From contig OZ244065.1 in assembly GCA_965215505.1 (NCBI GenBank), forward strand, positions 3,488,001 to 3,552,000: a stretch of DNA of 64,000 nt, read 5' to 3'. The stretch's first letter is position 1; the number at the start of each line of letters is the position of its first letter. This stretch comes from Capsulimonadaceae bacterium. Lineage in GTDB: Bacteria; Armatimonadota; Armatimonadia; Armatimonadales; Capsulimonadaceae. Of the stretch, positions 28,016-50,070 are shown piece by piece. Below the pieces are notes generated by a model. The model was not told where the DNA came from, ran no database searches, and saw nothing but the letters and a program-made list of their open reading frames with translations. The position numbers were made by a program, and so were the translations under genes.

Positions 28016-28051
28016 GGGGTCATCATACCCCGGCGGGGCGCTGGAGAGGCA

Positions 28052-28307
28052 CCGGCCATGAATGGCCGGCCTACTCTTGCATCTAAGTCGCTCCGCGACT
28101 GAAGACAGGGCGGACAGGAAGGGCGAACACAGGAAGGGCGAACACAGGAAGGGCGAACACAGGAAGGGCGAACACAGGAAGGGCGAACACAGGAAGGGCG
28201 AACACAGGAAGGGCGAACACAAGGTTCGCCCCTACGACCTGTGCGTCTGCAATCTCCAACCCCGGAGGGGTTTCCACTCGAGGAGTAGACCGGCCATTCA
28301 TGGCCGG
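28052..28307. repeat. Family C doublet containing a 15-bp x7 tandem array and a GTAG REP
   Basis: AGGAAGGGCGAACAC x7 (28116-28220), then AAGGTTCGCCCCTAC. Confidence 0.9.
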
Positions 28308-28353
28308 TGCCCCGGATGCAGGAATCGCGCCCGTGCGCGTCGAAACAGGGGGC

Positions 28354-29055
28354 ATGAACACGAAGGCAATCTACACACTTTTCGCGCTCCTCACGCCGTC
28401 ACTGCTGACGGCCCCGGCCCTGTGCGCCCCGGCCAAGCCGCCCGCCGCGCCGAAAGTCACGGCCCCCAAAGTCACGGCCCCGCGCGTCGTGCCCTCGCCG
28501 AGCGGGGCGGTCCCCGGCCCGTGGCGGGAGGGGGACATCGGCAAGGTGGGGGTGCGCGGCGCGGCCCGCGAGGCGGCGGGGACGTGGACGGTCGCGGGGT
28601 CCGGCGAGGACATTTTCGGGGCCGCCGACTCGTTCCACTTCGTCTGGCGGCCCTGGCACGGCGACGGCCGGATCACGGCCCGCGTGGTCCGCTACCAGCG
28701 CCGGGACATGTGGACCAAGGTCGGGGTCATGGCGCGCGCCACGGCCGCGGCGGGGTCGAAGTTCGCCGACGTTCTGGTGACGCCGGACAAGGGGGCGGAG
28801 ATGCAGTGGCGGACCGAGGCGGGGGGCGAGACGCAGACCACCGACCAGGTGCCTTCGCCGGCCCCGTTCTGGGTGCGCCTGGTGCGGAAGGGCGACACCC
28901 TGACGGGCTACGCCTCCCAGGACGGCCGCCACTGGCAGCCACGCGGCAAGGCGACGGTGGCGCTCGGGGAGGACATCCTGCTGGGCCTGTGCGTGACCAG
29001 CCACCGCAACGACGCGGCGACCGAGGCCGTGGTGGACTCGGTGGAGGTGGAGTAG
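28354..29055 (+). CDS. Secreted beta-sandwich (concanavalin/DUF1349-like) protein
   Basis: GSGEDIFG.ADSFHF, GDG.ITARV, WVRLVRKGD.LTGYAS.DG..W, GL.VTSH. Confidence 0.8.
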   Translation: MNTKAIYTLFALLTPSLLTAPALCAPAKPPAAPKVTAPKVTAPRVVPSPSGAVPGPWREGDIGKVGVRGAAREAAGTWTVAGSGEDIFGAADSFHFVWRPWHGDGRITARVVRYQRRDMWTKVGVMARATAAAGSKFADVLVTPDKGAEMQWRTEAGGETQTTDQVPSPAPFWVRLVRKGDTLTGYASQDGRHWQPRGKATVALGEDILLGLCVTSHRNDAATEAVVDSVEVE

Positions 29056-35994: not shown

Positions 35995-36134
35995 CTCGCC
36001 CGACTCTTATGGCCGGACGCTCCGGCCCGCCGCCTCTTGCGCCGGACGTGCTATAATCTCGCTAGTGGCTCCCCGGCTGCGCTTTGGGGCGATCCGTGCC
36101 GGGACACGGGGAGTGCGGGAGAAGAGGATCTTTT

Positions 36135-37241
36135 ATGACGGACGGCGACCACGGACCCACGGGCCAAGAACCACCGGGCCAAGAACCACCGGGCCAAGAA
36201 CCACCGGGCCAAGAACCCGTAGGCGGACGCACAGGCGGATACGTCCTCGGCCAGCCGCCCCCCCGGCCGGGCCGGACGCACCTGCTGTGGGACAACGGCG
36301 GCGGGACGGCGGCGGTGTGGCGTCTGGGCGAGTCCGGGCCAGGGGGGTCCGGGCCGGGGGAGTCCGCGCCGGGGGAGTCCGCGCCGGAGGGCCTGGAGGC
36401 GTCGGACCGGCAGCAGTTCGGGCCGTTCACGGGCTGGGCGGCGCGCGCCCTGGCGGTCGGGCCGAGCGAGCGGGTGTACCTGCTCTGGACGGGGCCGGGG
36501 CGGTCGGCCTCGGTCTGGAGCGTGGACATGGAGGCGGGGGCGGCGCGGCACCTGGAGTACGGGCCTTACGGCGGGTGGAAGGCGCGTGCCCTGGCGGTCG
36601 GCCCGGACGGTGTGCTGCGGGTGCTGTGGTCGGGGGCGGGCGGGGCGGCGGCTTTGTGGAGCCTGCCGGAGCAGAGTTTCGGGACGGGCGGGGTGCCGGA
36701 CTCGCTGGACTGCGGGCCGTTCGCGGGCTGGGAGGCGCGCGCCCTGGCGGTCGGCCCGGACAACCGGGCGCACCTGTTGTGGACGCGCGGGGACGGGGCG
36801 GCGAGCGTGTGGGCGGTCGGGGCGGACGGCCGGGCGCAGCCGAGCGAACACGGGCCGTATGACGGGTGGAGCGCGGTGGGCGTGGCGGCCTCGGGGCGCG
36901 GCGGGAGCCGGCTGCTCTGGCGGGGCGCGGGCGGCTACGCCTCGCTCTGGGACGTACAGGCCGCAGGGGTCGGGCAGGGCGGGGTCGGGCAGGGCGGGGT
37001 CGGGCAGGGCGGGGACGAGCGCGCGCCCGACGAGCGCCCGCAGGCGGTGCATGGGCCGTTCGCGGGCTGGACTGCGGCGGCGGTGGCGGGGGGCGCGGGC
37101 GACGCCGCCCATGTGCTGTGGCGGCGCGAGGGCGGCGGGCTGGCCTCCGTGTGGCGTCTGGGCGCATCGGACGGGGGCGACCACCGGGAGTGCGGACCGT
37201 TCGTGGGCTGGACGCCGGTAGCCCTGGCGGTGGGGCCGTAG
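36135..37241 (+). CDS. Beta-propeller-like repeat protein
   Basis: About 6 repeats of HLLW...A.VW...GPF.GW.ARALAVGPD; no signal peptide. Confidence 0.8.
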   Translation: MTDGDHGPTGQEPPGQEPPGQEPPGQEPVGGRTGGYVLGQPPPRPGRTHLLWDNGGGTAAVWRLGESGPGGSGPGESAPGESAPEGLEASDRQQFGPFTGWAARALAVGPSERVYLLWTGPGRSASVWSVDMEAGAARHLEYGPYGGWKARALAVGPDGVLRVLWSGAGGAAALWSLPEQSFGTGGVPDSLDCGPFAGWEARALAVGPDNRAHLLWTRGDGAASVWAVGADGRAQPSEHGPYDGWSAVGVAASGRGGSRLLWRGAGGYASLWDVQAAGVGQGGVGQGGVGQGGDERAPDERPQAVHGPFAGWTAAAVAGGAGDAAHVLWRREGGGLASVWRLGASDGGDHRECGPFVGWTPVALAVGP

Positions 37242-37284
37242 GGTATACTGGAGTCAATGGGAATGAAGCGATGAGGATGAAACC

Positions 37285-37908
37285 ATGAAAACGTCCGTCA
37301 GCGCCAAGCGCTGCCCGCAGTGCGGGAAAGTGACGGGTCTGCACACCGAGACGTGCGGGGAGTGCGGGCACCGGTTCCGGACGCACTTTGAGGAGCCGAC
37401 GGACCGCACGGAGGCGTTCGACGCCCACATGCTGCCGCGCCCGACCGCCGCGCGCCCGGCTGGCTCGCGCCGGCGGGCCTCGCCGTTCGTGCTGGCCTTC
37501 CTCGGCTCCTTCTGCGTGGTGGCCTCGGTGGGGGTGGGGGCGTGGCTGGCCTGGGCGCTGACGCGCGGCCCGTCCGACCTGCCCGCCCGGAATGCGTCGG
37601 GCGTGTCGGCGGGTGCCCCGCTGGCGGCCTCCTACGGGGACGGCCGCCGCACGGGCCGGGCGGAGGACCTGTACGAGCGCCTGGAGATGGCGATGTCGCT
37701 GTACGACGTGGACCAGGCGGCGGGCGGCATGGGGCGTCTGATCCGCTCGCCGGACGCCCACGTCCTGCTGCTGTCCTATGACTACCCGGACCAGAGCGTG
37801 CGCGTCTCGCTGTACCGCGGCGACCTGACGGGGGACGACTACCGGGTGCAGGCGGTCGCGCTGTACCGGGGCAAGACCTTGCTGCACCGGCACGCGGACG
37901 ACAACTAG
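37285..37908 (+). CDS. Zinc-ribbon membrane protein
   Basis: CPQCG...CGECG, then one TM. Confidence 0.8.
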   Translation: MKTSVSAKRCPQCGKVTGLHTETCGECGHRFRTHFEEPTDRTEAFDAHMLPRPTAARPAGSRRRASPFVLAFLGSFCVVASVGVGAWLAWALTRGPSDLPARNASGVSAGAPLAASYGDGRRTGRAEDLYERLEMAMSLYDVDQAAGGMGRLIRSPDAHVLLLSYDYPDQSVRVSLYRGDLTGDDYRVQAVALYRGKTLLHRHADDN

Positions 37909-37918
37909 GGGCTTGCAC

Positions 37919-38085
37919 CCTCTCCCGCCGCGCGAGCGCGGCACCCTCCCCTCGGAGGGAAGGGGTTTAGAACTAGCCCGGATAGCGGCCTTTGTCTCCC
38001 GCCACTGGGCCAGTGACCGCGCCCGTTGTCCGGAACCCTTCCCTCCGAGGGGAGGGGTGCCGCGCTCGCGCGGCGGGAGAGGATC
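37919..38085. repeat. Family D inverted-repeat element, copy 1
   Basis: CCTCTCCCGCCGCGCGAGCGCGGCACCCTCCCCTCGGAGGGAAGGG and its reverse complement. Confidence 0.9.
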
Positions 38086-38092
38086 GAGACGC

Positions 38093-41000
38093 CTACGCCG
38101 CCGCCAATTCCCGCCCCGCCTCCCGCCACTCGTCCCCCGCCCCGCCGCCGGTGTTGGCCGGGGGGCCAGCCGCGCCGCGCGCCGGGGGCAGCAAAGCTTC
38201 CAGGCGCTCGGGCGGGACGGGCGGGCTGAACAGGAAGCCCTGCATCTGGTCGCAGCCGAGACGCGCCAGGGTCCGCCGCTGCCCCTCGCGCTCCACCCCC
38301 TCGGCGATCACCTCCAGCGACAGGGCGTGGGCCATGTCAATGACGGCCCGGACGACGGCCTCGTCGTGGAGGCCGTCCTCATCCCCGCCCCCCTCGCCGT
38401 TCCCCTCGCCACGGTCCGCGCCGTCCCCGGCCGCGTTCCCGGCCAGGCCGAGGACGAACGAGCGGTCCACCTTCAGGACGTCGAGCGGCAGGCGGCGCAG
38501 GTAGGACAGCGACGAGTAGCCCGTCCCGAAGTCGTCCACCGACAGCCGGATGCCCAGGGCGCGCAGCGCGTTCAGGCGGCCCGCCGCCGTCTCGCCCAGG
38601 CCGTCCGCTCCTCTGCCGTCCGCTCCTCTGCCGTCCGCTCCTCTGCCGTCCATCCCCTTCCCGTTCAGGTTCTCGATTAGGGCGCTCTCGGTCAGCTCCA
38701 GGTCCAGCAGGCGCGGGTCCAGCCCCGCCGCATCCAGGGCGGCCCGGACGGAGGGGACCAGGCCGCGCTCGCCGAGCTGGCGGGCGGACAGGTTGACCGA
38801 GACGCGCAGGGGGCGGCCCTCGCGCGCCCAGACGGCGGCCTGGCGGCAGGCCTCCCGCAGCACCCAGTCGCCGAGCGGGACGATCAGGCCGGTCTCCTCG
38901 GCCAGCGGGATGAAGCGGCCCGGCGAGACCATGCCCCACTCGGGGTGACGCCAGCGGACGAGGGCCTCGGCCCCGACGATCTCGCCGGTGGCGGACGAGA
39001 CCTGCGGCTGATAGAAGAGGACCATCTCGCCGTGCCCGTCCGCCTCCGCCCTCTCCCCGCTTCCTTGTGCCTCGATGGCCTTCCGCAGACTGTTCTCCAC
39101 ATGGAGCCGGTCCTCGGCGGCCTCGGTCATGGCGGGCGTGAAGCGCCGCCAGCGCCCGCGCCCCTCGGACTTCGCGTGGTACATGGCGAGGTCGGCGTGC
39201 TTGAGCAGGGTCTCGGCGTCCGCGCCGTCCTCGGGGAACCGGCTGATGCCGATGGAGGCGGCGACGTGCAGCTCGTGGCCCTCGATGGTGACGGGGGCGG
39301 CCAGGCTGTCGAGCAGGTCGGCGGCGGCGGTGGCGGCGTCCTCCCCCGCCGCGCGCCCGCCTTCGGGCACCAGCAGCAGGGTGAACTCGTCGCCGCCCAT
39401 CCGGGCGAGGACGTCCTGGGGGCCGCCGTGCTGGGCGTGGCGGGCGGCGAACCGGCTGGCGACCTCCTGGAGCATGTAGTCGCCGGCGACGTGGCCGAGG
39501 CTGTCGTTGACGTGCTTGAACAGGTCGAGGTCCATGAACAGCAGCGCGAACGGCTCGGCCCGGCCGATGGCGTCGTCCAGCGCCTCGCCGAATCGGGCGC
39601 GGTTGGGCAGGGAGGTGAGCGGGTCGGTGTAGGCCTGCCAGCGGATCAGGGCGACGGCCTTCTTCTGCTCGGCCTCGGCCCGCTTCTGGGCGGTGATGTC
39701 GCGGGAGATGACCGAGGCGCCGATCAGCGCCCCGGTGTCGCTGCGGAGCGGGGAGGAGCGGAAGGAGATGTCTATCGGGGACCCGTCCTTGCGGAGCCGG
39801 GTGGTGTCGGCGATCTCCAGCGCCTCGCCCGCCTCGATGGCGGCGGCGATGCGGGCGCGCTCGGCGTGCAGGGCCGGCGGGAACAGGCGGGCGACGTTCT
39901 GCCCGATCATCTCCTCCGCCGTCCACCCGTACAGCCGCTCCGCGCTCGGGTTCCAGGTCAGGACGGTGCCGTCGAGGGTGCGGGAGACGATGGCATCGTG
40001 GGAGGAGTGGACGATGGCGGCCAGCCGGTTCAGCCCCTCCTGCCCCCGGCGGCGCTGGGTGCTGTCGAGGGCGACGCCGATCACGCCCTGCGGCGTGCCG
40101 TCCTCGCCCAGCAGCGGGAGGCACTGGGTCTCCCAGGAGTAGCCCCCCACCTCGGTGGTGTAGGTGACGGCCTCGCCGCCCAGCGCGCGCCGGATGTCGG
40201 CGAGGAGGGCGGGCGCGTCCGCGCGCAGGTCAAAGACGGACCGGCCCACCGCCTGCCCCGGCGCAAGCCCGAGCAGGCGCAGGCCCTTGCCCTCGGACAT
40301 GGTGAAGACGCCCTGGGTGTCCAGGCTGAACAGGATGAGGGGGGCGTTGTCCACCACGGTCTGGAGCCGGTCCTGCGCCTGCCGCAGCAGCTCCTCGGCC
40401 CGACGCCGGGCGGTGATGTCCTGGGCGATGCCCATGGCGGCGTCCTGCACCTCCCAGACCAGCGGGTGGGAGGTGATCTCGGCCCAGAGCAGCTCGCCCG
40501 ACTTCGTCAGGTGCCGCCAGACGCTGCCCGCCTGCGCGGTGCCGACGCTGCGGCGGACGGCGTCGCGGTCCTCGGGGGGCCGGATGTCCAGCAGGGTCAT
40601 CGCCAGGAACTCCTCCCGGCTGTAGCCGTAGCGCCGCACGGCGGCCTCGTTGACGGCCAGGAAGGCCAATGTCTGTTTGTTGTAGACCCACATCGGGAGC
40701 GGGTTCCGCTCGAACAGCAGGCGGTAGCGCACCTCGCTCTGGCGCAGGCCGTCCTGGGCGCGCAGGGCGGCGCGGAAGCCGGCCCCGGCGGCGCGGGTGA
40801 CGGCGAGGGCGAGGGCCAGCGACAGGAGGAGGATGACGCCCTGCCGGGCCTGGCCGAGCCGGAGGGTGCGCGCCCGCATCCGCGTCTCCGCCGCGCCCTT
40901 GCGGACCCGGTAGGCGTCCAGGCCCTTGCCCAGTGCGTCGAGACGGATCTCCAGGGCGTGGCGGGCGGCCGTCCCCTGCGACTCCCACAGGGCGCGCGCT

Positions 41001-41446
41001 TCGGCGCCCCGCCCCCCGCCGGACAGGCGGATCGCACGGTCCTCCAGGGGGGCGCAGACGGCCCGCTCCTGGCGCGCGGCCTCGGCACACTGCGCCCGCA
41101 GGTCGGCGTCGCCGGGCAGGCTTTGGAGGGTGGCCTGGAGCGCCTCGAACCCGGCCCGAACGTCCTCGTCGGCCTCCCGCTTGCGCTCGCGCTTCTCGGC
41201 CTGGGCCGTGTAGACGTAGCCCTGGGTGTCGGAGGCGGCGTCCCGCGCGGCCAGCGTGACTGCGGCGATCCCGGCCCCCCCCTCGCGGACGCGCGCGTCC
41301 GTGACGGAGGCCTGGTCGAAGCTCTCCTTCATCGCCGTCCCGGTCAGGACGTCGCCCGCCAGGCCGAGGAGGAGGACGAGGAAGAAGCTCGCCGCGAGTA
41401 CCCTGCCCATCCCCCACTGCGGGGATGGGGCTTCGGATTTAGTCAT
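38093..41446 (-). CDS. Membrane sensor-PAS(x3)-GGDEF-EAL diguanylate cyclase/phosphodiesterase
   Basis: 2 TM, three PAS-like repeats, intact GGDEF, EAL and DDFGTGYSS. Confidence 0.95.
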   Translation of the reverse strand: MTKSEAPSPQWGMGRVLAASFFLVLLLGLAGDVLTGTAMKESFDQASVTDARVREGGAGIAAVTLAARDAASDTQGYVYTAQAEKRERKREADEDVRAGFEALQATLQSLPGDADLRAQCAEAARQERAVCAPLEDRAIRLSGGGRGAEARALWESQGTAARHALEIRLDALGKGLDAYRVRKGAAETRMRARTLRLGQARQGVILLLSLALALAVTRAAGAGFRAALRAQDGLRQSEVRYRLLFERNPLPMWVYNKQTLAFLAVNEAAVRRYGYSREEFLAMTLLDIRPPEDRDAVRRSVGTAQAGSVWRHLTKSGELLWAEITSHPLVWEVQDAAMGIAQDITARRRAEELLRQAQDRLQTVVDNAPLILFSLDTQGVFTMSEGKGLRLLGLAPGQAVGRSVFDLRADAPALLADIRRALGGEAVTYTTEVGGYSWETQCLPLLGEDGTPQGVIGVALDSTQRRRGQEGLNRLAAIVHSSHDAIVSRTLDGTVLTWNPSAERLYGWTAEEMIGQNVARLFPPALHAERARIAAAIEAGEALEIADTTRLRKDGSPIDISFRSSPLRSDTGALIGASVISRDITAQKRAEAEQKKAVALIRWQAYTDPLTSLPNRARFGEALDDAIGRAEPFALLFMDLDLFKHVNDSLGHVAGDYMLQEVASRFAARHAQHGGPQDVLARMGGDEFTLLLVPEGGRAAGEDAATAAADLLDSLAAPVTIEGHELHVAASIGISRFPEDGADAETLLKHADLAMYHAKSEGRGRWRRFTPAMTEAAEDRLHVENSLRKAIEAQGSGERAEADGHGEMVLFYQPQVSSATGEIVGAEALVRWRHPEWGMVSPGRFIPLAEETGLIVPLGDWVLREACRQAAVWAREGRPLRVSVNLSARQLGERGLVPSVRAALDAAGLDPRLLDLELTESALIENLNGKGMDGRGADGRGADGRGADGLGETAAGRLNALRALGIRLSVDDFGTGYSSLSYLRRLPLDVLKVDRSFVLGLAGNAAGDGADRGEGNGEGGGDEDGLHDEAVVRAVIDMAHALSLEVIAEGVEREGQRRTLARLGCDQMQGFLFSPPVPPERLEALLPPARGAAGPPANTGGGAGDEWREAGRELAAA

Positions 41447-41636
41447 GAAGATGGTCTTGCTTTCCAGGCGTGGCGGCGGGCTTCCGGGAGGGTGTAGGCG
41501 GCTTGCTTCCTGATTGTTCCACACTCGGGCACTTCTCACCCATCTCGGTATTCTCCTTGCCCGCTTCCATTGTCGGCAGGAAGCAGGCGTCCCCTCAGCC
41601 CTCCGAAAGACGGTAGACAAAGTTATGCTAAAAGGC

Positions 41637-41665
41637 TTGACATGCGAACAAAACAAGTGTATACT
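41637..41665 (+). promoter_or_regulatory. Consensus sigma70 promoter for the head operon
   Basis: TTGACA-17-TATACT. Confidence 0.8.
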
Positions 41666-41781
41666 ATCTTCACCCCCGGCCCGTGGCGGTCCTCCAAGCC
41701 TTCCAGGCCACGGGACGGGGATTCCGATGCCGGTAATTCTGACTTTTTGCTATTCTGGAAAATGGAGAGAGGACAACGCTG

Positions 41782-42195
41782 ATGACCGCACTTTCCGCTT
41801 CCTATGACGCCCGCCGCAAGGACGGCGCGCTGGTCTCGTGCCCCGTGGGCGCGGGTGTCCACGTCTTCAAGAGCGCCCTGCTGGCCGTCGCCGCGACGGG
41901 GCTGATCCAGCCCGCCGGGGACGCGCCCGGCCTGGTCTTTGCGGGCGTCGCCTACGAGGAGAGCGACAACACGGGCGGCGCGGCCGGCGCGAAGTCCGTG
42001 CGCGTGCTGAAGACCGGCGTCTTCACGCTGGCGAAGGCCGGGGCCGCCCAGACGGACGTCGGCAGGCCCGCGTTCGTCCTGGACGACGCCACCGTGTCCA
42101 CGGCGGCCACCGCCGACAGCCTGGCCTGCGGCATCGTGGTCGGCACCGAAGGCGGCGCGCATGTGCAGGTGCGGATAGACAGCAAGGCGGGGTGA
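41782..42195 (+). CDS. Phage capsid cement/decoration protein
   Basis: LVFAGVA.E..DNTGG.AG...V.V...GVF pattern; head-module context. Confidence 0.75.
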   Translation: MTALSASYDARRKDGALVSCPVGAGVHVFKSALLAVAATGLIQPAGDAPGLVFAGVAYEESDNTGGAAGAKSVRVLKTGVFTLAKAGAAQTDVGRPAFVLDDATVSTAATADSLACGIVVGTEGGAHVQVRIDSKAG

Positions 42196-42209
42196 GGCCG
42201 CTCGCGTCC

Positions 42210-42389
42210 GATCCTCTCCCGCCGCGCGGGCGCGGCACCCTCCCCTCGGAGGGAAGGGGTTTTAGAGTAGGAAAATCCCCTCGCCGCTTGACCAGAGGCA
42301 GGGCCTTCCTCAACGATCTTAAGGCCCTCTTGTCGGAAAACCCTTCCCTCCGAGGGGAGGGTGCCGCGCTCGCGCGGCGGGAGAGGATC
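42210..42389. repeat. Family D element, copy 2
   Basis: Intergenic; ends just before the AAAGGA RBS. Confidence 0.9.
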
Positions 42390-42415
42390 AGAAAGGATCA
42401 GAAAGGAAACCGAAC

Positions 42416-43465
42416 ATGACCGACGACAACGCTGAATCCGACACGACCGGAACTGAGGCCGCCATCACTCTGGAAGCGCCCGCCGCGCTCGCCTTTTCTG
42501 AGGCAACCGCGGGCGGCGAAAGCGCGGAGGAGCGCCGCTCCGAGCGGGTGGCGCGGCTGCTGGAGGCGGGCGACTACCCGGACAAAGGGCTTAAGCTGAC
42601 CGAGGCCGACCTGGACGGGATCGTCGCGCGGTTCGCCGCCGACTCGCCCGGTGTCCCCGTCAAGGTGGAGCATGTGGACTCGCCCCTGGACCCGCTGGGG
42701 CACGTCAAGCGCGTCTGGCGGGAGGGCGCGGCCCTCTTCGGGACTCTGGCCTTCCCCGCCGACCTCGCCGCCTTCCTGCGGCGGCGCGGGGCGGCGAAGC
42801 TCTCCGTCGGGCTTCAGCGGACGCCGCTGGCCCTGCGGGAAGTCTCGCTGGTGCTGCACCCGCGCGTCGCAGGGGCCGTGCTGATGGGGACTACCCCCAC
42901 CCCCCGCCCCTCCCTTCACCCCGCTACGGAGGCCCTGCGACTAGGGGCCGCAAGCGGGAGAGGGGAGTCAGAGAAGGCCGATGACTCGGAAGTGTCCGAT
43001 CTTGCTTCGTCCGGCCCCTCTCCTTCATGCCCCCCTCTCCCGCTTGCGGGGGAGGGGCGGGGGGTGGGGGCATCGGACCCCGAGATCGTCCGCCTCCGGG
43101 CCGAAGTGGCGCGGCGAGACGTGGACGCGCAAATCGCCGCGTTCAAAGCGCAGGGGCGGCTCGTGCCCGCCGGGGAGGCGGACGCCCGCGCCCTGCTGGC
43201 CTTGGGTGGGGAGGCGTCCGTGACGCTCTCCGCCGCCCCGGAGCCGGTCGCGCGTGTCTTCCGCAGGTTCCTGGAAGCGCAGCCGCCCGTGGTGTCTTTC
43301 GGGGAGGCGGCGGCGACCGAATGGCGGGCGGCACACGGGTTCACACACGACGAACATACGTTCCTATCAAAGCGGCTGGGCGTGGACCCCGCCCGTGTCG
43401 CCGCCCTGCTCCGCGCGGAGCAGGAGGACAAGGACGGAAAGAACGGAGAGGGCGATGCACATTGA
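42416..43465 (+). CDS. Mu-like prohead protease/scaffold with an in-frame family E insertion
   Basis: G.YP.K, PVKVEH, LGHV, LSVG, VSLV.HPRV motifs followed by a helical scaffold region. Confidence 0.75.
   Translation: MTDDNAESDTTGTEAAITLEAPAALAFSEATAGGESAEERRSERVARLLEAGDYPDKGLKLTEADLDGIVARFAADSPGVPVKVEHVDSPLDPLGHVKRVWREGAALFGTLAFPADLAAFLRRRGAAKLSVGLQRTPLALREVSLVLHPRVAGAVLMGTTPTPRPSLHPATEALRLGAASGRGESEKADDSEVSDLASSGPSPSCPPLPLAGEGRGVGASDPEIVRLRAEVARRDVDAQIAAFKAQGRLVPAGEADARALLALGGEASVTLSAAPEPVARVFRRFLEAQPPVVSFGEAAATEWRAAHGFTHDEHTFLSKRLGVDPARVAALLRAEQEDKDGKNGEGDAH
42893..43070. repeat. Family E element inside the protease gene
   Basis: Arms match 10646-10817. Confidence 0.88.
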
Positions 43466-43646
43466 CCCACAAACGCTGACGCAGACACTGATCCTGGTGG
43501 GCGTCGCCGTCCACCTGCTGGCGGCGGGCGCGAAAGCCTTGTTCCACACGCCCAAGCGTCAGGCGCAGATAGACGCCATCGAGCGCAAGGTGGACGAGGT
43601 CTTGGGCCAGGTGAAGACCGCCGCCCAACCGACCGCAACGAACTGA
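43455..43646 (+). CDS. Small single-TM protein, holin-like
   Basis: 63 aa; TM followed by a charged helical tail; GGAG RBS. Confidence 0.55.
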   Translation: MHIDPQTLTQTLILVGVAVHLLAAGAKALFHTPKRQAQIDAIERKVDEVLGQVKTAAQPTATN

Positions 43647-43675
43647 CCGGACACGACACAAAAGGACACAGACCA

Positions 43676-44572
43676 ATGACACTGGTGAAATCAGACATCC
43701 CCGAGCTGCTGACGGCCGGGCTGAAGACGGCCTTCTTCCAGACCTTCGGCGAGTCCCCGGCGCAGTGGGACAAGGTGGCGACGACCATCCCGTCCGAGCG
43801 GGACACCGAGCAGTATGCGTGGCTTGGCGCGCTGCCCGGAATGCGCGAGTTCCGCGACGAGCGGCAGCCGGGCGACCCCAAGCCTTACGCCTACGCCATC
43901 CAGAACAAGACGTGGGAGAGCACCCTCTCGGTGGACCGGGCGGCTTTGGAGGACGACCAGTACGGGCAGATCGCGCTGCGAATCCGGCAGATGGCGCGCG
44001 TCGCCAAGTCCCACCTCGACTCCATCGTCTTCGGCCTGCTGGGGACCGGGTTTAGCGCGCCCGGCTACGACGGCGTGCCGTTCTTCGGGACGCACAACCA
44101 GGGGGCGACGCTCTCCAACAAGGGGACGGACCCCCTGAGCGCGGTCGCCCTGCAAAGCGCGATCACGGCGATGATGCGCTTCACCGACGACCAGGGCCGC
44201 CCGGCGGGGACCACGCCGAACGTCCTGGTCGTGCCGCCCGAGCTGTACTGGGAGGCGACCGTCCTGCTGACGTCCGCCCTGTTCCCGGACGCGGTGACGA
44301 CGGCCGCCCAGGAGCTTGCCGCGAACCCGCTGCGCGGGATGCTGACGCTGCTCGCGACCCCGTACCTGTCGTCGCCCACGGACTGGTTCCTGCTGGACAC
44401 CTCGCGGGTCATCCGCGCCGTCGTCTTGCAGATGCGGAAGGAGTTCGAGTTCGGGTCGCTGGAGGGCAGCTCGGAGAACGGCTTCCTGCGCGACCAGTTC
44501 CTGTACGGGGTGCGGGCAAGGTACAACGCGGGCTTCGGCGACTGGCGCGCGGCCTTCGGGGCGCAGGTGTGA
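43676..44572 (+). CDS. Mu-like major capsid protein (gpT family)
   Basis: EQYAWLG.LP.MREF, IQNKTWESTL.V.R..LEDDQYG, LVVPPEL, YGVRARYNAGFG.W. Confidence 0.92.
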   Translation: MTLVKSDIPELLTAGLKTAFFQTFGESPAQWDKVATTIPSERDTEQYAWLGALPGMREFRDERQPGDPKPYAYAIQNKTWESTLSVDRAALEDDQYGQIALRIRQMARVAKSHLDSIVFGLLGTGFSAPGYDGVPFFGTHNQGATLSNKGTDPLSAVALQSAITAMMRFTDDQGRPAGTTPNVLVVPPELYWEATVLLTSALFPDAVTTAAQELAANPLRGMLTLLATPYLSSPTDWFLLDTSRVIRAVVLQMRKEFEFGSLEGSSENGFLRDQFLYGVRARYNAGFGDWRAAFGAQV

Positions 44573-44726
44573 TCCTCCCCCGTCGCGCGAGCGCGCCACC
44601 CTCCCCTCGGAGGGAAGGGGGCTTCCAGGAGGACGCGCGCTGCTGCGTCTTCTTTCCGCTTCCCCTCCTGTCCGGAACCCTTCCCTCCGAGGGGAGGGTG
44701 GCGCGCTCGCGCGACGGGAGAGGATC
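44571..44726. repeat. Family D element, copy 3
   Basis: Starts within the capsid stop codon and ends at the next RBS. Confidence 0.88.
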
Positions 44727-44743
44727 AGAAAGGAACCCGCATC

Positions 44744-45310
44744 ATGTCCCTATTACCTCTCACCCACGCCGACCTCAAGCGCCTGTGCGCCATCGAGGCC
44801 GCCGACACCTCCCAGGACGCCGACCTGGACGGCCTTTTGGCCGCCCAGCAGCCGGCCCTGGAATACGCGCTAGACCCGGCCATCCTCCGGGCGGCATCCT
44901 CGACCGACGCCGACCTGGGCCTGCGCGCGACGCTCGTGCTGGGCATGGCCGAGAGCCTGGCGGGCGAGTGGCTGCGGGCGCAGGCCCGCGCGCCCGGCGC
45001 GGGGGACGACTTCCGCCTCGGCCCCCTGTCCGTCAGCGCCTCCCGGACCGACGGACCCGCGCCGATGGGCGACCGGCTGGCCGCGCAGGGCGGCAGGCGG
45101 CTCGCGCCGTTCGGGCGCGCGCCGAAAAGTGTCGGAACGGACGCCATCGGCAGCATCCCCGGCGGGACGCCCGACGGCTCCTCCCGCGCGCCGCTTCTGG
45201 CGCAGACGACGCTCGCCCGAACGACGCCCGCCCCGTCGGGCCGGGGGGCCGCCGGCGTCGGGTGGGCCGGGTGGGACGACGAGGGGAACATCGAGGAGGA
45301 CGACCGATGA
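44744..45310 (+). CDS. Putative head-tail connector/head completion protein
   Basis: T.ADLKRL.AI.....D..L..LL N-terminus; lies directly after the capsid gene. Confidence 0.6.
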   Translation: MSLLPLTHADLKRLCAIEAADTSQDADLDGLLAAQQPALEYALDPAILRAASSTDADLGLRATLVLGMAESLAGEWLRAQARAPGAGDDFRLGPLSVSASRTDGPAPMGDRLAAQGGRRLAPFGRAPKSVGTDAIGSIPGGTPDGSSRAPLLAQTTLARTTPAPSGRGAAGVGWAGWDDEGNIEEDDR

Positions 45311-45648
45311 GCCTGATGATCCCCGCCGACGCCGCCCGCGCCCGGCGCGTCTCCGCCCTGTTCGCCGGGTCGGGCGAGGACTTCATCCTGATCCGGTCGG
45401 GCCAGAACCGGCCCCACCGGGGCCTGTTCGCGCCGATGGACGGCCAGACGGCCGGGACCTACTTCGACGCCAACGAGTCGGTGGGCCTGCTGCGGCCCGC
45501 GCTGTCCTTGTACGGCGACGGCGCTTCCTCCGACCCGCCCGTGGCGGGCGACGTGTTCTTCCGCGACGGCCGCCTGTGGACCGTCCGCAAGACGCAGTCC
45601 TTCCGCCTGGGCGACACGCCGCTCCTGACCCTGGCGCTGTGCGATTAG
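45307..45648 (+). CDS. Putative head-closure protein
   Basis: ATGA-coupled; small beta-rich protein with P..GD....DG..W.V motif. Confidence 0.55.
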   Translation: MSLMIPADAARARRVSALFAGSGEDFILIRSGQNRPHRGLFAPMDGQTAGTYFDANESVGLLRPALSLYGDGASSDPPVAGDVFFRDGRLWTVRKTQSFRLGDTPLLTLALCD

Positions 45649-45683
45649 ACGAGACGCCAAGACGATTAGAAAGGACCCAGACC

Positions 45684-46238
45684 ATGACCACCCTGACCGC
45701 CGGCCGTATTTCCGCCGACCCCGTTTCCAGCCATTCCGCCGACCGCTGCGCCCTGCTGGCCCCGACGGAGGGCTATCCCTGGCACTCGCTGCCGCTGGAC
45801 CCCGAACGGCTTTCGCGCTACCTCGGGACCTGCCTCGCCCACGGCGTCGGCTACGAACTCGGCGCGAAAGCCTCCGACCTGGAAGCCATCCCGCCCGACT
45901 ACCACAACATCGACTGCTCCGGCTGGGTCCGGGCCGCCGTCGCGGTCGCGACCGAGGGCCGCGTCACCATGCCCGACGGCTCGGTCGTCCAGAACGACTG
46001 GTGCGCCGCCTCGGGCCTCAAGCGCAGCGACTACGGCGGCTGCCGCCTGCTGGACGGCCTGACGCGCATCGCCTTCATCCGCGCGAACGGCTTCCACCCC
46101 GTCGGCCACGTTTATCTGGCGCGCAACGGAAGGACCCTGGAGTCGTTCGGCGGCCACGGGCCGGGCAGCCGCCCGGTCACGACGCACGTCCTGAGCGCCG
46201 AGACGACCGACGTCTATGTGCTGGCGGTGCGGATGTAA
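45684..46238 (+). CDS. NlpC/P60-like cysteine peptidase (endolysin candidate)
   Basis: Y.LGAK...IDCSGWV...GHVYL Cys/His dyad. Confidence 0.75.
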   Translation: MTTLTAGRISADPVSSHSADRCALLAPTEGYPWHSLPLDPERLSRYLGTCLAHGVGYELGAKASDLEAIPPDYHNIDCSGWVRAAVAVATEGRVTMPDGSVVQNDWCAASGLKRSDYGGCRLLDGLTRIAFIRANGFHPVGHVYLARNGRTLESFGGHGPGSRPVTTHVLSAETTDVYVLAVRM

Positions 46239-46241
46239 GTC

Positions 46242-46449
46242 TCCTCTCCCGTCTCGCAAGCTCGCCACCCTCCCCTCGGAGGGAAGGGGTTTTGGATAAG
46301 CCGGATAAGAGGCGAGGGCTTCCGAGAGTACGCGGGCTGCTGCGTTTTTCTGCTTTCCCTTCTGTCCGGAACCCTTCCCTCTTGTCCAGTTTGTCCGGAA
46401 CCCTTCCCTCCGAGGGGAGGGTGGCGAGCTTGCGAGACGGGAGAGGATC
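46242..46449. repeat. Family D element, copy 4
   Basis: Lies between the hydrolase stop and the portal RBS. Confidence 0.88.
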
Positions 46450-46464
46450 AAAAGGAAACCCACC

Positions 46465-47691
46465 ATGAACTTTACCCTCCCCTCCCTCCCCTTCCTCAAA
46501 CGCCGTCCGTCCCCGGACGGCTCCTCCGCGCCCGCCCCGCCCCTCGGCGAGCTGGCCCCCGTCAGCGGCGCGTCCCTGCTCGGCATGACCGCCTCCCTCG
46601 CCCTGCCCGATGACGGCCTGCCGGGCGGGTACGCGGTCTACCGGAGGATGCAGAACGACCCGCAGGTCAAGGCGTGCCTGAACACCAAGAAGTTCGCCGT
46701 TCTGTCTCAGGGCTGGACCCTCCACGCCGCCTCCGAGTCGCCCGAAGACCTCGCCGTCGCCGACTTCCTCCGGGACACCCTGACGGCAGTGCGCGGGGGC
46801 CTGCTGGACGCATTGCACGACGTTTTAGACGCCCTGGCCCTGGGCGTCTCACTCGTCGAGATCGTCTACCGGATGAACGAAAGCGGCCCCTACGCCGGCC
46901 TGGTCGGTCTCCTCGCGCTCAAGGCCAAGGACCCCGACGGCTTCACCTTTGAAACGGACGACTTCGGCAACGTCACCGCCCTGCGCGGCCCCTTCGGGGT
47001 ATCTTATCCGTCCGACAAGTTCCTGCGCTATAGCCACATGCCCCGCTACGAGAACCCTCTCGGCCAGAGCGACCTGCGGGCCGCCTACAAGCCCTGGCTC
47101 GCCAAGCAGCAGCTTTTGCGCTGGTGGACCAAATATTTAGAGAAGTTCGGGATGCCCACCGTCACCGGCTCCTACGACGCCGAGCGCGGCTACGGCGTGG
47201 ACCAGCAGCGGGAGCTGCTGGCCCTGGTCGCGCAGGTGCATAACGAGAGCGCCATCGTCCTGCCCTCGGACATGCATTTGGGCCTACTGGAGACCGCGCG
47301 GGCCGCCCCGGCGGGCTTTTTGGAGGCGGTGGAGTACCAGGACCGGGCCATCGCCAAGAGCATCTTAGGCCAGACCCTCACCACCGACGGCAGCGCGTCC
47401 GGCGCGACCTTCGCCCTGGGCAGCGTCCACCAGGACATCCTGCTGTTCTACCTGCACAAGATCCAGCGCGATTTGGAGGAGACCGTGATCGGCGCGCAGC
47501 TCCTCGCCCCGCTGGTCCGCTATAACTTCGGCCCCAACGTCCCCTGCCCCCGGTTCACGTTAGGCACATTGGACGACGGCCGACTGGCGACGGCGGGCCG
47601 CCTGATCGCCGACCTCGTGGCCGGCAAGGTCATCGCCCCCGACGAGCCGTGGATACGCGCGTATCTGGGCCTGCCCGCGCCGGGCGAATGA
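46465..47691 (+). CDS. Mu gp29-like portal protein (DUF935)
   Basis: M..DPQVKACL..KK, W..YLEKFG.P, IAKSILGQTLT, ALG.VH, PLV.YNFG. Confidence 0.9.
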   Translation: MNFTLPSLPFLKRRPSPDGSSAPAPPLGELAPVSGASLLGMTASLALPDDGLPGGYAVYRRMQNDPQVKACLNTKKFAVLSQGWTLHAASESPEDLAVADFLRDTLTAVRGGLLDALHDVLDALALGVSLVEIVYRMNESGPYAGLVGLLALKAKDPDGFTFETDDFGNVTALRGPFGVSYPSDKFLRYSHMPRYENPLGQSDLRAAYKPWLAKQQLLRWWTKYLEKFGMPTVTGSYDAERGYGVDQQRELLALVAQVHNESAIVLPSDMHLGLLETARAAPAGFLEAVEYQDRAIAKSILGQTLTTDGSASGATFALGSVHQDILLFYLHKIQRDLEETVIGAQLLAPLVRYNFGPNVPCPRFTLGTLDDGRLATAGRLIADLVAGKVIAPDEPWIRAYLGLPAPGE

Positions 47692-47769
47692 CCCTCCTGA
47701 CCGCTTCCCCTGGCTCCGCGTAGGGGCGAACCTCGTGTTCGCCCTTCTTTTTCTTGTACTCGGTCGCTT

Positions 47770-47784
47770 TGGCACGGTTTATGC
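47770..47784 (+). promoter_or_regulatory. Sigma54 promoter
   Basis: TGGCACGGTTTATGC = GG-N10-GC. Confidence 0.8.
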
Positions 47785-47890
47785 ACAGGTATTCTTTACG
47801 GCCTCTCCCACGCCCCAGGCACTCATGCCACCCCCCGCCGCGCCCCCACCCGGCGCGCGCCGCCCCCCGAATCCGAAAAGGATCAGCGCC

Positions 47891-48472
47891 ATGCACTTCT
47901 CCTCCCGCCGCCCCGGCGGCCTCGCCGCTCCCGCCGCACTGGGCCTCGCCGCCCTCGCCCCTACCATGGCCCACGCCCAGAGCCTCAACGGGCAGCCCGT
48001 TCAGGTGACGGAACGCCAACCCAACACGGGCAGCGTTGTCTTGGACGCAGGCACCCAGACCGTCACGTCCGCAGGCGTCTCATTCACGACCGCTGTCGGA
48101 TTCACGACCGTCACTCCGAGCCAGATCGTCTTCACCTTTAATCCTAACTTCAATGGTTTCGGCCCGGCTTCCTTCAACGGCTTCCGCATCGCCGAGACGG
48201 GCAGCTCGCCCGTCGCCATCACGAGCGTGACGCTGGACCCCAGCAGCAACATCTCCGGCTTCGACGCCAGCCGGATCAGCTTCGACGCCACGGACGTGTA
48301 CGCCAACTTCCAGGGCCTCACTAACGTTTTCATCGTCGGCAGCAAGGTGACGCTCGACCTGAACCCCGCGCCCACCGCCGTGCCGGAACCCTCCCCGGCC
48401 CTGACCTTCGCCGTGGCGGCCCTGGGCCTGGGCGGGCTGATGATCGCGGCGCGGAAGAAGCGGACGGCGTGA
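47891..48472 (+). CDS. PEP-CTERM surface protein
   Basis: Signal AHA-Q; VPEPS + TM + RKKR. Confidence 0.9.
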   Translation: MHFSSRRPGGLAAPAALGLAALAPTMAHAQSLNGQPVQVTERQPNTGSVVLDAGTQTVTSAGVSFTTAVGFTTVTPSQIVFTFNPNFNGFGPASFNGFRIAETGSSPVAITSVTLDPSSNISGFDASRISFDATDVYANFQGLTNVFIVGSKVTLDLNPAPTAVPEPSPALTFAVAALGLGGLMIAARKKRTA

Positions 48473-48487
48473 GTCCCAGCGGAGAGG

Positions 48488-48716
48488 CCCGGCCCTGAAG
48501 GGCCGGGCTACTGGTGAATGGAAGTGTCTCCGACACTGAGGACGGGATCAGGACAGGAGGGCGAACACCAGGGGGGCGCGGCAAGAGAAGAGGGTACGGC
48601 AATCAGCGCCCCTACCATAAGCCATCCCCGATCTGTCTTCCTCTGTCTTTCTCTCTTCCTCTCTTCAACCGCGGAGCGGTTTTCACTCAAGAGTAGCCCG
48701 GCCATTCATGGCCGGG
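48488..48716. repeat. Hybrid B/C doublet with a nested GTAG REP
   Basis: Left arm CCCGGCCCTGAAGGGCCGGGCTAC; right arm GTAGCCCGGCCATTCATGGCCGGG. Confidence 0.8.
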
Positions 48717-48798
48717 GGGCCCCTCTGCTCCGCATCGGGTGTATTGCCTACAGACTCGATACCCGATGCGTGACGCCCGACGCAGGAGAGGCCGCCCT

Positions 48799-49143
48799 AT
48801 GACCACCGTGACCCTTGACGACGCGCTCCAGGCCCGCATCCGGGCCGTCGCCGCCCCGGAAGAAGACCTTCAGACGTTCATCGCCGCCGCCCAGGACCTC
48901 ATCGCCCGCCGCGAGCGCCGGGCCGCAGCGTGGGCCGCCGCCCGCACCGAAGCGCAGGCCATCCTGAACGGCCCGACCAGGCCGCACGACCCCGAGGCGA
49001 CCTACCGCAAATATCAGGAGAAGTACGGCTGGGCCGACCTGCCTGACGGCCCGCCCGAACAGTTGGAGGCGGAGGCGGAGGCGATCCTGGCCGCGCTGCC
49101 GCCGGAGAAGATCGCGGCGATGGAGCGGAAAGGCTTATTGTGA
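48799..49143 (+). CDS. Putative RHH-type antitoxin
   Basis: MTTVTLDDAL..RI N-terminus; AGGAG RBS; upstream of a toxin-like remnant. Confidence 0.55.
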   Translation: MTTVTLDDALQARIRAVAAPEEDLQTFIAAAQDLIARRERRAAAWAAARTEAQAILNGPTRPHDPEATYRKYQEKYGWADLPDGPPEQLEAEAEAILAALPPEKIAAMERKGLL

Positions 49144-49200
49144 GGCGGCCCGACCCGGCCCCGCCCGAGGACCCGCCGCGCCGTCCTGGCCGGGCTGGGA

Positions 49201-49346
49201 CGAGTGATTGAAATCACTCGCTGACGCCGGATTTGTCCAAGGGACAAGGGATTGGAATGACGCCTACGGCCCGCCCTGCCCCCGTCCTGTCTCCTTCTTC
49301 TGTCCCCTGGACAGGTCCTCGCGCAGCGAGTGATTTCAATCACTCG
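49201..49346. repeat. Family A REP doublet, copy 6
   Basis: Same arms as the other family A copies. Confidence 0.9.
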
Positions 49347-49545
49347 TCCGGCTCGTCCGGCTCCCGTCCTGCTCTGTTACGGCCCGACCAACAAGCGCAC
49401 CGGGACGCCCGTCTGCATCCTGTACACCGTCCTGCCGCCCGCCCCCGACGAGCCGCCCGAAACCGCCGAGTCGGTGGTCGTCCTGCTGCGCCTGCTCCAC
49501 GGCGCGCAGGCACTGCTCCCGGACGAGGCCGAGGATACCCCATGA
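49347..49545 (+). pseudogene. RelE/ParE-like toxin C-terminal remnant
   Basis: ILYTV...VVVLLRLLHGAQ; no N-terminus; stop is coupled to the next ATG. Confidence 0.6.
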
Positions 49546-49988
49546 TTCGCAGCGAGGCAGAGTATCAGGAGGCCCGGAAACAGATGGCCGAGGGCCGCGC
49601 CTTCGCGCGCCAACAGCGGGCCGAGCTGGAAGCCAGGGGCTACACCGCCGAACAGGTGGGCCGGGGGTTGGAGGCGACGCTCTCCTTCCAGGCCCAGATC
49701 GCCGAAGACGTGGACTGGTACGAGAGGGCCTGCCGCCGCGAGATCGCGCCGCTCGCCAATCTCGCCCAGGTCGGGCGGCTCTTGATCGCGCTGCGCCTGG
49801 CGAACGGCCTCTCCCAGCGCGCGCTGGCGGCCCGGCTGGGCGTCCCCGAGGCGTCCGTCTCGCGTGACGAGCGCAACGAATACCACGGCATCACGGTGGA
49901 GCGCGCCCAGCGCGTCCTGGAAGCCCTGGGGGAGACGACCACGACGGTCGTTGCGGGCACCCCGGCCCGCGCCCCGGTCGCCGCCTGA
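49542..49988 (+). CDS. XRE-family HTH protein
   Basis: MIRSEAEYQ; LIALRLANGLSQRALAARLGV....VSRDERNEY. Confidence 0.88.
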   Translation: MIRSEAEYQEARKQMAEGRAFARQQRAELEARGYTAEQVGRGLEATLSFQAQIAEDVDWYERACRREIAPLANLAQVGRLLIALRLANGLSQRALAARLGVPEASVSRDERNEYHGITVERAQRVLEALGETTTTVVAGTPARAPVAA

Positions 49989-50070
49989 TCGCCGGCCTCG
50001 CGGCCGGCAAGGTCATCGCCCCTTCTTTATCTTCGCCTTGTTTCCCTCTTTTTTCGCCGACCGGCCCTGT

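Follow-up and report, generated by a model that had tools for sequence, protein, structure and literature searches.

A vertically inherited head operon and orphan terminase in a genus of Capsulimonadaceae, probably descended from tail-less satellites

Gene transfer agents (GTAs), including RcGTA of Rhodobacter, BaGTA, VSH-1 and Dd1, are produced from chromosomal, phage-derived structural genes that are split, lack replication and integration functions, are inherited vertically and evolve under purifying selection. These agents cannot package all of their own genes and are regulated by the host, and to our knowledge all described GTAs encode their own tails. Satellites that form their own capsids are the other close point of reference, and every described capsid-forming satellite that we know of is mobile. 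The system considered here was found in a 64,000-nucleotide stretch (the window; positions 3,488,001 to 3,552,000 of contig OZ244065.1, assembly GCA_965215505.1) of a Capsulimonadaceae bacterium, and it consists of an operon of eight genes (g1 to g8) for a phage Mu-type head and a large terminase gene (TerL) elsewhere on the same chromosome. It is very probably a vertically inherited, selected split system, and descent from a family of tail-less satellites is probable. The overall reading favoured on balance is a host-fixed, two-locus derivative of such a satellite that would make tail-less, neck-bearing, DNA-filled capsids.

Among satellites, the phage-inducible chromosomal islands that form capsids (cf-PICI) are described, in the parts of two reports that concern their particles, as being released without tails and completed by phage tails (10.1101/2025.02.11.637232; PMC10085698). 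The survey of these islands, in the sections that deal with their distribution, found them in Proteobacteria and Firmicutes (PMC10085698).

The head operon, its distant terminase and their inheritance

Coordinates are positions in the 64-kb window unless marked G000:C1 (the contig of this genome, G000) or with an L-number (loci of relatives). The genome is a single 6.18-Mb contig of 70-76% G+C, and reading frames were picked using third-position G+C. Eight intact open reading frames (ORFs), all on the plus strand, span 41782-47691, with family and fold evidence taken gene by gene:

41782..42195, plus strand: g1, 137 amino acids (aa), virion structural protein (phrog_1731, E 3.4e-24)
42416..43465, plus strand: g2, 349 aa, protease/scaffold-like protein (phrog_976 head maturation protease, E 2.4e-12)
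43455..43646, plus strand: g3, 63 aa, single-transmembrane (1-TM) protein, with a single hydrophobic helix seen by eye
43676..44572, plus strand: g4, 298 aa, Mu gpT-type major capsid protein (PF10124 Mu-like_gpT, E 4.1e-64)
44744..45310, plus strand: g5, 188 aa, head-tail adaptor-like protein by language-model look-alikes
45307..45648, plus strand: g6, 113 aa, stopper or head-tail joining protein, lambda gpFII-like
45684..46238, plus strand: g7, 184 aa, divergent NlpC/P60-type cysteine peptidase
46465..47691, plus strand: g8, 408 aa, Mu-type portal (PF06074 Portal_Mu, E 3.4e-71)

The capsid gene g4 and the portal gene g8 are each single-copy in the genome, and the locus holds the capsid, portal, protease and head-tail adaptor/connector set of cf-PICI, the adaptor call being weak. 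A decoration or cement role is inferred for g1. The match of g2 to phrog_976 is confined to residues 226-308 in its C-terminal part and a Pfam scan of g2 returned zero families above cut-off; judged by position, g2 is like Mu gpI/Z. No Pfam or PHROG family matched g3, which is a possible holin. The small protein g6 resembles Phage_attach (PF05354) in the language-model Atlas (score 0.95, 198 shared features), its AlphaFold2 (AF2) model has a pLDDT of 88 and its top Foldseek match is the lambda neck entry 8xow_f (TM 0.61, E 3.9e-3), with all nine of the nine best Foldseek matches being phage neck or connector entries. Atlas look-alikes of g5 (0.94-0.95) include Phage_connect_1, Phage_Gp19 and DUF3199 clusters, and Pfam, PHROG and PDB-sequence profile searches of g5 gave no meaningful match. 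The PDB-sequence profile searches reached E-values of 0.012 for g7, 0.85 for g5 and 0.15 for g6 at best, all to unrelated proteins, and the predicted complex of g5 with g6 scored 0.09 against a mark of 0.32, which says nothing either way. The peptidase assignment of g7 comes from its relatives: a Pfam scan of g7 itself gave zero direct matches, a profile search found 237 homologues, and nine of 33 distant ones (38-53% identity) match PF00877 NLPC_P60 (best E 3.8e-7). Residues D77-C78-S79-G80 and H142 are invariant among the homologues; the AF2 model of g7, built from a 14-row alignment, had a pLDDT of 47, too poor for a fold search.

A first-pass annotation, made from the letters of this stretch, had listed eight co-oriented open ORFs, all of which are present on the plus strand, with family or fold evidence for most. 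It had also found no terminase, which holds for the head locus and fails for the genome. The sole TerL of the genome is an intact open frame at G000:C1:3885553-3887031 on the minus strand (492 aa, Terminase_6N and Terminase_6C), 350 kb from the portal gene, and stands solitary between two host genes, an SLH-porin gene and a PAS-GGDEF-HD gene. Upstream alignment suggests that its true start is the GTG at 3887004, giving 483 aa (3885553-3887004). The Walker A, Walker B and nuclease acidic residues of TerL are invariant in 23 of the 23 sequences compared. The two loci hold g1-g8 and TerL only, with no integration, replication or lysogeny genes, and the transposase, repressor, TerS-TerL-portal-gpF order and tail module of a Mu-like prophage were all absent from the window; Pfam and PHROG scans thereby uphold the absence, reported at first pass, of tail, transposase or integrase, repressor and replication genes at the locus. 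No HNH gene was recognised in the system.

The distribution of both loci was followed in 23 other species of the same Capsulimonadaceae genus and one genome of the sister genus. The portal occurs in 22 of the 23 other species, as does TerL, and the capsid gene in 21, the full-length matches being free of stop codons, and both genomes without the capsid gene are 75-76% complete. Portal, TerL and capsid were each absent from the sister genus (0/1). The order g1-g8 is colinear in ten other genomes, nine of which have the host gene up2 adjacent upstream, and a downstream SIS-domain gene is common to six genomes. The SIS-domain gene of G000 is 21 kb off, on the other side of the locus, and a local rearrangement must therefore have taken place there. 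At the TerL locus, nine of the ten loci examined have at least one of the host genes that flank TerL in G000, and in complete genomes the head locus and TerL lie anywhere from 93 to 565 kb apart. Repeated site-specific integration was considered as a cause of the common flanks and rejected, because the two conserved neighbourhoods are separate, the 93-565 kb spacing is variable and there is no integrase.

Chromosomal copies form one clade apart from the mobile copies described below, both in the tree of capsid and portal (12 of 19 rows, support 100/99) and in the TerL tree (17 of 23 rows, 100/99), and both trees recover the same major clades as the RpoB tree. Synonymous divergence (dS) of TerL tracks that of RpoB in identical species pairs:

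G000-G012: TerL dS 0.27, RpoB dS 0.30
G000-G011: TerL dS 0.43, RpoB dS 0.49
G001-G020: TerL dS 0.54, RpoB dS 0.57
G008-G021: TerL dS 0.67, RpoB dS 0.62

Vertical descent of the two-locus system dates from the origin of the genus. One match falls outside this pattern of hosts: a portal fragment (L068, 71% identical) and a homologue of g7 (P0016) occur in a metagenome-assembled genome labelled Janthinobacterium lividum, for which a mis-binned Armatimonadota contig is more likely than transfer.

Estimates by the NG86 method of the ratio of nonsynonymous to synonymous divergence (dN/dS), which are rough in this genome, where about 90% of third codon positions are G or C, were 0.02-0.49 for g1-g8 (0.10-0.19 for g1) and 0.11-0.54 for TerL. 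The neighbouring host genes gave 0.08-0.38 (up2), 0.14-0.28 (GGDEF-EAL), 0.12-0.28 (SLH-porin) and 0.12-0.19 (UvrD-like), and RpoB gave 0.03-0.07. Head genes and TerL are under purifying selection, like neighbouring host genes. The first pass had proposed a host-maintained, split-locus system and not a decaying prophage, and had named syntenic orthologs, vertical phylogeny, dN/dS well below 1 and an orphan terminase as things to look for. Orthologs were found in synteny across the genus, the capsid and portal tree and the TerL tree are congruent with RpoB, dN/dS lies at 0.02-0.54 over g1-g8 and TerL, and the orphan TerL occupies a second locus that is itself syntenic; together with the remoteness of phage portals, these results support the proposal.

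Tail-less mobile relatives and ancestry

The portal of the closest cultured phage is 31.5% identical and the best match on a viral contig reaches 46%. The close relatives are tail-less mobile elements within the same genus, namely 15-16 kb episomes and integrated islands. In genome G001 a unit of 15,312 bp was assembled as 1.63 copies (L042 and L043, contig C3), alongside a related 16.1-kb contig (L044, C2); both have 62% G+C and are probably episomes, circular or concatemeric, that consist of head, terminase and regulator genes only. TerL comes first in them, then g1-g7 and the portal, and after these a pair of HTH_17 proteins, a CsrA-like protein and small ORFs, and beyond the head and terminase genes the episomes have no ORF longer than 222 aa and no tail genes. 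A CsrA-like gene also lies directly upstream of TerL on these contigs. On the islands, a large serine recombinase and HTH_17 accompany TerL, restriction-type cargo, the head genes and a Prim-Pol + AAA_25 protein. Integrase, regulator and primase are thus present in the mobile relatives and absent from the chromosomal head and TerL loci. The island cargo of G016, between TerL and g1 (L022:11807-19086 and L048:1018-2931), comprises a SNF2/PLD helicase, two Eco57I-type methylases and GmrSD, and this interval may be a cargo hotspot in the satellite family.

Chromosomal and mobile proteins are only 50-69% identical. When all episome ORFs were compared with the G000 genome by tblastn, the matches were g1-g8, TerL, a single broken fragment of TerL and the CsrA genes of the host only. 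The fragment (G000:C1:4697563-4697793), which has an in-frame TAG, is a decayed remnant of a second element. Both g3 and g7, which by sequence may be a lysis pair, are kept in the chromosomal and episomal copies and are missing from three island copies.

The portal-last order is ancestral to the element family, because the mobile relatives have it too. A distant Armatimonadota relative has the canonical order of TerL, portal, scaffold, decoration and capsid (L065:8515-17982); this locus continues with a 1018-aa ORF and an adaptor-like gene, and no obvious tail genes precede the host-like genes. From their gene content, the mobile relatives can be read as satellites that form capsids and have heads of Mu type. 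As a description of the ancestor, a tail-less satellite with a capsid of its own fits better than a Mu-like prophage stripped of its tail. The first-pass picture of the ancestry accordingly needs changing, as the nearest kin are tail-less episomes and islands with the same gene order, portal last. The same kinship answers the first-pass concern that the nearest homologs might lie in phages, since the nearest kin are not phages and cultured-phage portals are 31.5% identical at most.

Profiles PF03354, HK97 capsid, Phage_portal and PhageMin_Tail had no match in the G000 genome, and the sole Phage_sheath_1 (PF04984) match is a 649-aa sheath in the cluster G000:C1:1030850-1060122. This cluster also has a tube-sized ORF, a 655-aa VgrG-like ORF, a PAAR-like ORF and baseplate-sized ORFs, with roles assigned from sizes and translations, and it probably encodes an extracellular contractile injection system. 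The genome search advised at first pass for orphan terminase and tail genes therefore yielded the terminase and, with the families tried, no tails.

Control regions, flanks and repeats

The non-coding features of the head locus are as follows:

41613..41619, plus strand: GTAGACA motif, some 17 nt 5' of the -35 element and unchanged across 11 aligned chromosomal loci
41637..41665, plus strand: sigma-70-type promoter TTGACA-17-TATACT, 11/12 consensus positions, 1 site against 0.2 expected
41673..41720, plus strand: leader stem-loop of 14 pairs, RNAalifold consensus of 11 species
42207..42392, no strand: palindrome like a repetitive extragenic palindrome or miniature inverted-repeat transposable element (REP/MITE-like), g1-g2 gap, 56-nt arms, 95% complementary
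44570..44727, no strand: REP/MITE-like palindrome, g4-g5 gap, 50-nt arms, 98% complementary
46242..46450, no strand: REP/MITE-like palindrome, g7-g8 gap, 47-nt arms, 100% complementary
47722..47746, plus strand: terminator-like hairpin of 10 pairs, then a T-run, 3' of the portal gene

The promoter is the one named at first pass and its position was confirmed. Plain TTGACA-17-TATACT has 39 perfect copies in the G000 genome and equals the local housekeeping consensus; GTAGACA-N15-19-TTGACA occurs only once, at the head promoter, and a genome-wide search for loci sharing the operator-like motifs of the head operon found no other in G000. The GTAGACA motif, -35, spacer and -10 are nearly invariant over 11 species, the spacer reading GAAACAAATG in nine of them and AAAACAAGTG in G000. 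Because the spacer is nearly invariant across species, the alignment suggests that it is an operator. Tried as a LexA site, the spacer (AAAC-AAAT-GTAT) has three mismatches to GAAC-N4-GTTC. Eight of the 14 pairs of the leader stem-loop are preserved by two-sided (compensatory) changes in at least one species, and an Rfam scan of window positions 36000-50000 returned nothing at gathering score. The upstream regions of the mobile relatives are unrelated to the chromosomal head promoter region.

The sequence GAAC-N4-GTTC, which we take to be the LexA box ('Cheo box') of Gram-positive-type bacteria, abuts an extended -10 upstream of TerL in 10 of 12 species, and in most species the system may be induced as part of the SOS response. 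Boxes of the same type in G000 lie at recA2 (perfect) and in tandem at recA1 and lexA1 (one mismatch each). This genome has three full-length lexA-like genes (G000:C1:483472, 1658128 and 4951723) and two recA genes (G000:C1:1655105 and 3300290), and one of the lexA-like genes adjoins one recA.

The REP/MITE-like element is found in about 21 places in 6.18 Mb, with another copy near window position 37919, and since these are so few genome-wide, three copies within 6 kb amount to a local excess. As RNA, the hairpins within the operon may set relative product amounts.

The upstream neighbour of the head operon is a PAS-GGDEF-EAL protein (38096-41656). Downstream, a 245-aa ORF has no Pfam match and is PEP-CTERM-like by eye only, and the ORF after it matches PF07589 at E 0.0029, under the family cut-off. 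None of 10 flanking ORFs matched a PHROG family of known function. The bounding of the operon by host GGDEF-EAL and PEP-CTERM genes, as first annotated, is thus secured by Pfam for the former, depends on inspection by eye and a sub-cut-off match for the latter, and is accompanied by no phage-like flank among the 10 ORFs.

Three further observations concern the surroundings of the two loci. Each has a PAS-sensor c-di-GMP enzyme as its divergently transcribed neighbour, which is GGDEF-EAL for the head genes and GGDEF-HD for TerL (G000:C1:3887504-3889927), a pairing that may be chance and is conserved in some species only. ARAGORN called a 92-nt tRNA-Arg(ccg) at 37896-37987 on the minus strand, which is probably a false call because a REP-like element and the end of the up2 gene lie within the same stretch. 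An array of short tandem repeats occupies 27092-29052, where translations of the two strands repeat FLCSP and TGRAN units.

Mechanism, alternatives and comparison with known systems

Under the favoured reading, the portal, protease/scaffold, gpT capsid and decoration protein would form a small procapsid, the adaptor and FII-like stopper would then be added as a neck, and the orphan TerL would load the capsid with DNA. Release of the particles would fall to the NlpC/P60 enzyme, perhaps aided by the 1-TM protein. The episomes, 15-16 kb in size, allow the capacity of the capsid to be estimated at about 15 kb. With its loci 350 kb apart (93-565 kb in relatives), the system, like a GTA, cannot package its own complete gene set; as its two halves exceed one such headful, it could not move itself, and its particles would carry other DNA, most likely that of the host. 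Delivery would take place only via tails borrowed from infecting phages, and what results overall would be gene transfer of the GTA kind, interference with the tail-donor phage, or both, either of which may be the benefit to the host. We infer particle formation, packaged DNA, tail borrowing, lysis and SOS control from the genes, and the chance that the product is a DNA-filled tail-less capsid dependent on foreign tails stands at about even. A more specific version, in which DNA damage induces Mu-type capsids that take up host headfuls of about 15 kb by a TerL without a specificity subunit, are freed by lysis through the system's own pair of membrane protein and NlpC/P60 enzyme, and as a kind of GTA gain both infectivity and range only from tails that they steal from unrelated phages, is possible yet doubtful as a whole.

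Several points weigh against this account. The dN/dS estimates are rough, as said, and they peak in the clade of G000, at 0.27-0.54 for TerL and 0.49 for g6. The LexA-type box at TerL is absent from G000 and departs by one mismatch in its close relative G022, and three gaps between genes of the G000 operon have taken up REP-like elements; the missing box, the high dN/dS and the insertions may together mean relaxed constraint in this clade. Perfect LexA-type boxes are not enriched, with 67 genome-wide against 59.5 expected. In G015, an IS200-like gene between REP-like repeats stands in place of g1-g7 and only portal and TerL remain, so the system is dispensable in at least one lineage. The adaptor role of g5 is a weak call and a lead only, with language-model look-alikes as its sole basis, and the fold-match E-values of g6 are weak, 3.9e-3 at best. 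No small terminase was recognised at either locus, and no search aimed at TerS families was made. Tail genes were absent from the G000 genome for the few families tried (sheath and one tape-measure family), and a third, unrecognised conserved locus is conceivable. The replacement in G015 (L017:8150-9350) has a frameshifted IS200-like transposase gene and REP-like repeats that resemble those of the window, and it looks like the work of a REP-associated transposase unit that took out most of the operon.

A first alternative is that the system serves phage defence only, with capsids, neck and terminase made upon infection that soak up tails or cut and package phage DNA, and with any transfer a by-product. 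Satellites of this general kind can cut helper yield, at least in the cases covered by the relevant part of the survey (PMC10085698); the island relatives hold restriction and GmrSD cargo between TerL and g1, giving them a defence context, and the neck proteins g5 and g6 imply tail docking. However, the model capsid-forming PICI has negligible helper effects according to the same part of that report (PMC10085698), the LexA-type box of TerL in 10 of 12 species points to DNA damage and not to infection sensing, and no defence family turned up for g1-g8, for which no aimed search was made. Defence as the sole function is therefore unlikely.

A complete GTA with its tail genes at a third, missed locus would also fit the adaptor and the stopper, which imply a tail partner. 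Known GTAs are split over several loci, and Phage_sheath_1 and PhageMin_Tail were the only tail markers searched. Against this, the mobile relatives with the full ancestral gene set likewise lack tail genes, tblastn with their ORFs recovered only g1-g8, TerL, the TerL fragment and CsrA in G000, and the lone sheath match sits in a contractile-injection-type cluster. This explanation is improbable.

The fixed copy could otherwise act as a helper, a public good providing capsid, lysis or packaging in trans to islands and episomes of the same family. Chromosomal and mobile copies do occur together in G001, G013, G016 and G020, and the three island copies without g3 and g7 lack just what the chromosomal copy has, but most genomes, G000 among them, have a chromosomal copy and no intact mobile copy, and the mobile copies come with a capsid, portal and TerL of their own, with proteins 50-69% identical between the groups. 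Such a role is quite improbable.

A neutral, not-yet-decayed remnant of a satellite or prophage is very improbable. It would fit the loss of g1-g7 in one species, the stop-bearing decayed fragments of related genes in several genomes (including the TerL fragment of G000) and the weaker constraint in the clade of G000, yet about 20 species, with synonymous divergence of up to 0.3-1.0, retain the nine genes in intact form, and with dN/dS of 0.02-0.54 and invariant catalytic motifs and promoter it is already contradicted. Least credible of all is a DNA-free, encapsulin-like compartment made from a phage capsid: capsid, scaffold and decoration alone could form a shell, but portal, adaptor, stopper and terminase would be needless there and are nevertheless kept under selection, with the ATPase and nuclease motifs of TerL intact.

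The favoured reading, a fixed derivative of a tail-less satellite, can be set beside four kinds of known system. Phage Mu and Mu-like prophages share the PF10124 capsid, the PF06074 portal and a Terminase_6-type TerL, but here the portal is last, TerL is off-locus, and transposase, repressor, gpF, small terminase and tail are missing. Mulch and Flayer, satellites of Streptomyces, likewise supply the machinery for their own encapsidation; both are mobile and have named helper phages in Actinobacteria, and nothing in the part of their description that bears on this indicates a fixed, split, vertical copy (PMC10690885).

The likeness to GTAs is broader. It comprises fixed split loci, no replication or integration genes, vertical inheritance and purifying selection (both found here), inability to self-package and, perhaps, regulation by the host. 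The differences are that no tail was found here with the few families searched, a non-exhaustive set in which no complete host-encoded tailed particle came to light, and that the head is of Mu type and from a satellite, in place of an HK97-type siphovirus-like cluster.

The cf-PICI, exemplified by EcCIEDL933, have in the portions of their descriptions that list genes their own capsid, portal, protease, head-tail adaptor/connector and TerL, and like the present system they are without tail genes. The mobile relatives add an integrase, HTH regulators and a primase-type replication gene, and functionally they match the capsid-forming PICI of de Sousa et al. (PMC10085698) and He et al. (10.1101/2025.02.11.637232), so far as the consulted parts of those papers describe them, but with a Mu-type head. 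The window copy differs in having no integrase, regulator or primase, in its TerL 350 kb off and in its vertical inheritance across a genus. Large and small terminase are inside the island in cf-PICI, whereas here TerL is remote and no TerS was recognised, with no search aimed at one. Further differences are the Mu gpT/portal-type head, the serine recombinase that is the integrase of the relatives, the lack of a recognised HNH gene, the candidate lysis pair (g3, a possible holin, and g7, NlpC/P60) and the host phylum, Armatimonadota.

No prior description of the system was found by title or abstract, a search that leaves satellite catalogues in supplements outside its reach. The TerL LexA-type box and the invariant promoter of the head operon, with its leader hairpin, offer testable handles, and the tamed copy and its still-mobile cousins, as episomes and defence-cargo islands in the same genomes, provide a natural comparison. 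If the favoured reading is true, satellites, and not prophages alone, can be domesticated, the little-studied phylum Armatimonadota joins the lists of both GTAs and satellites, and a tail-less head-plus-terminase system fixed throughout a genus links GTAs with capsid-forming satellites.

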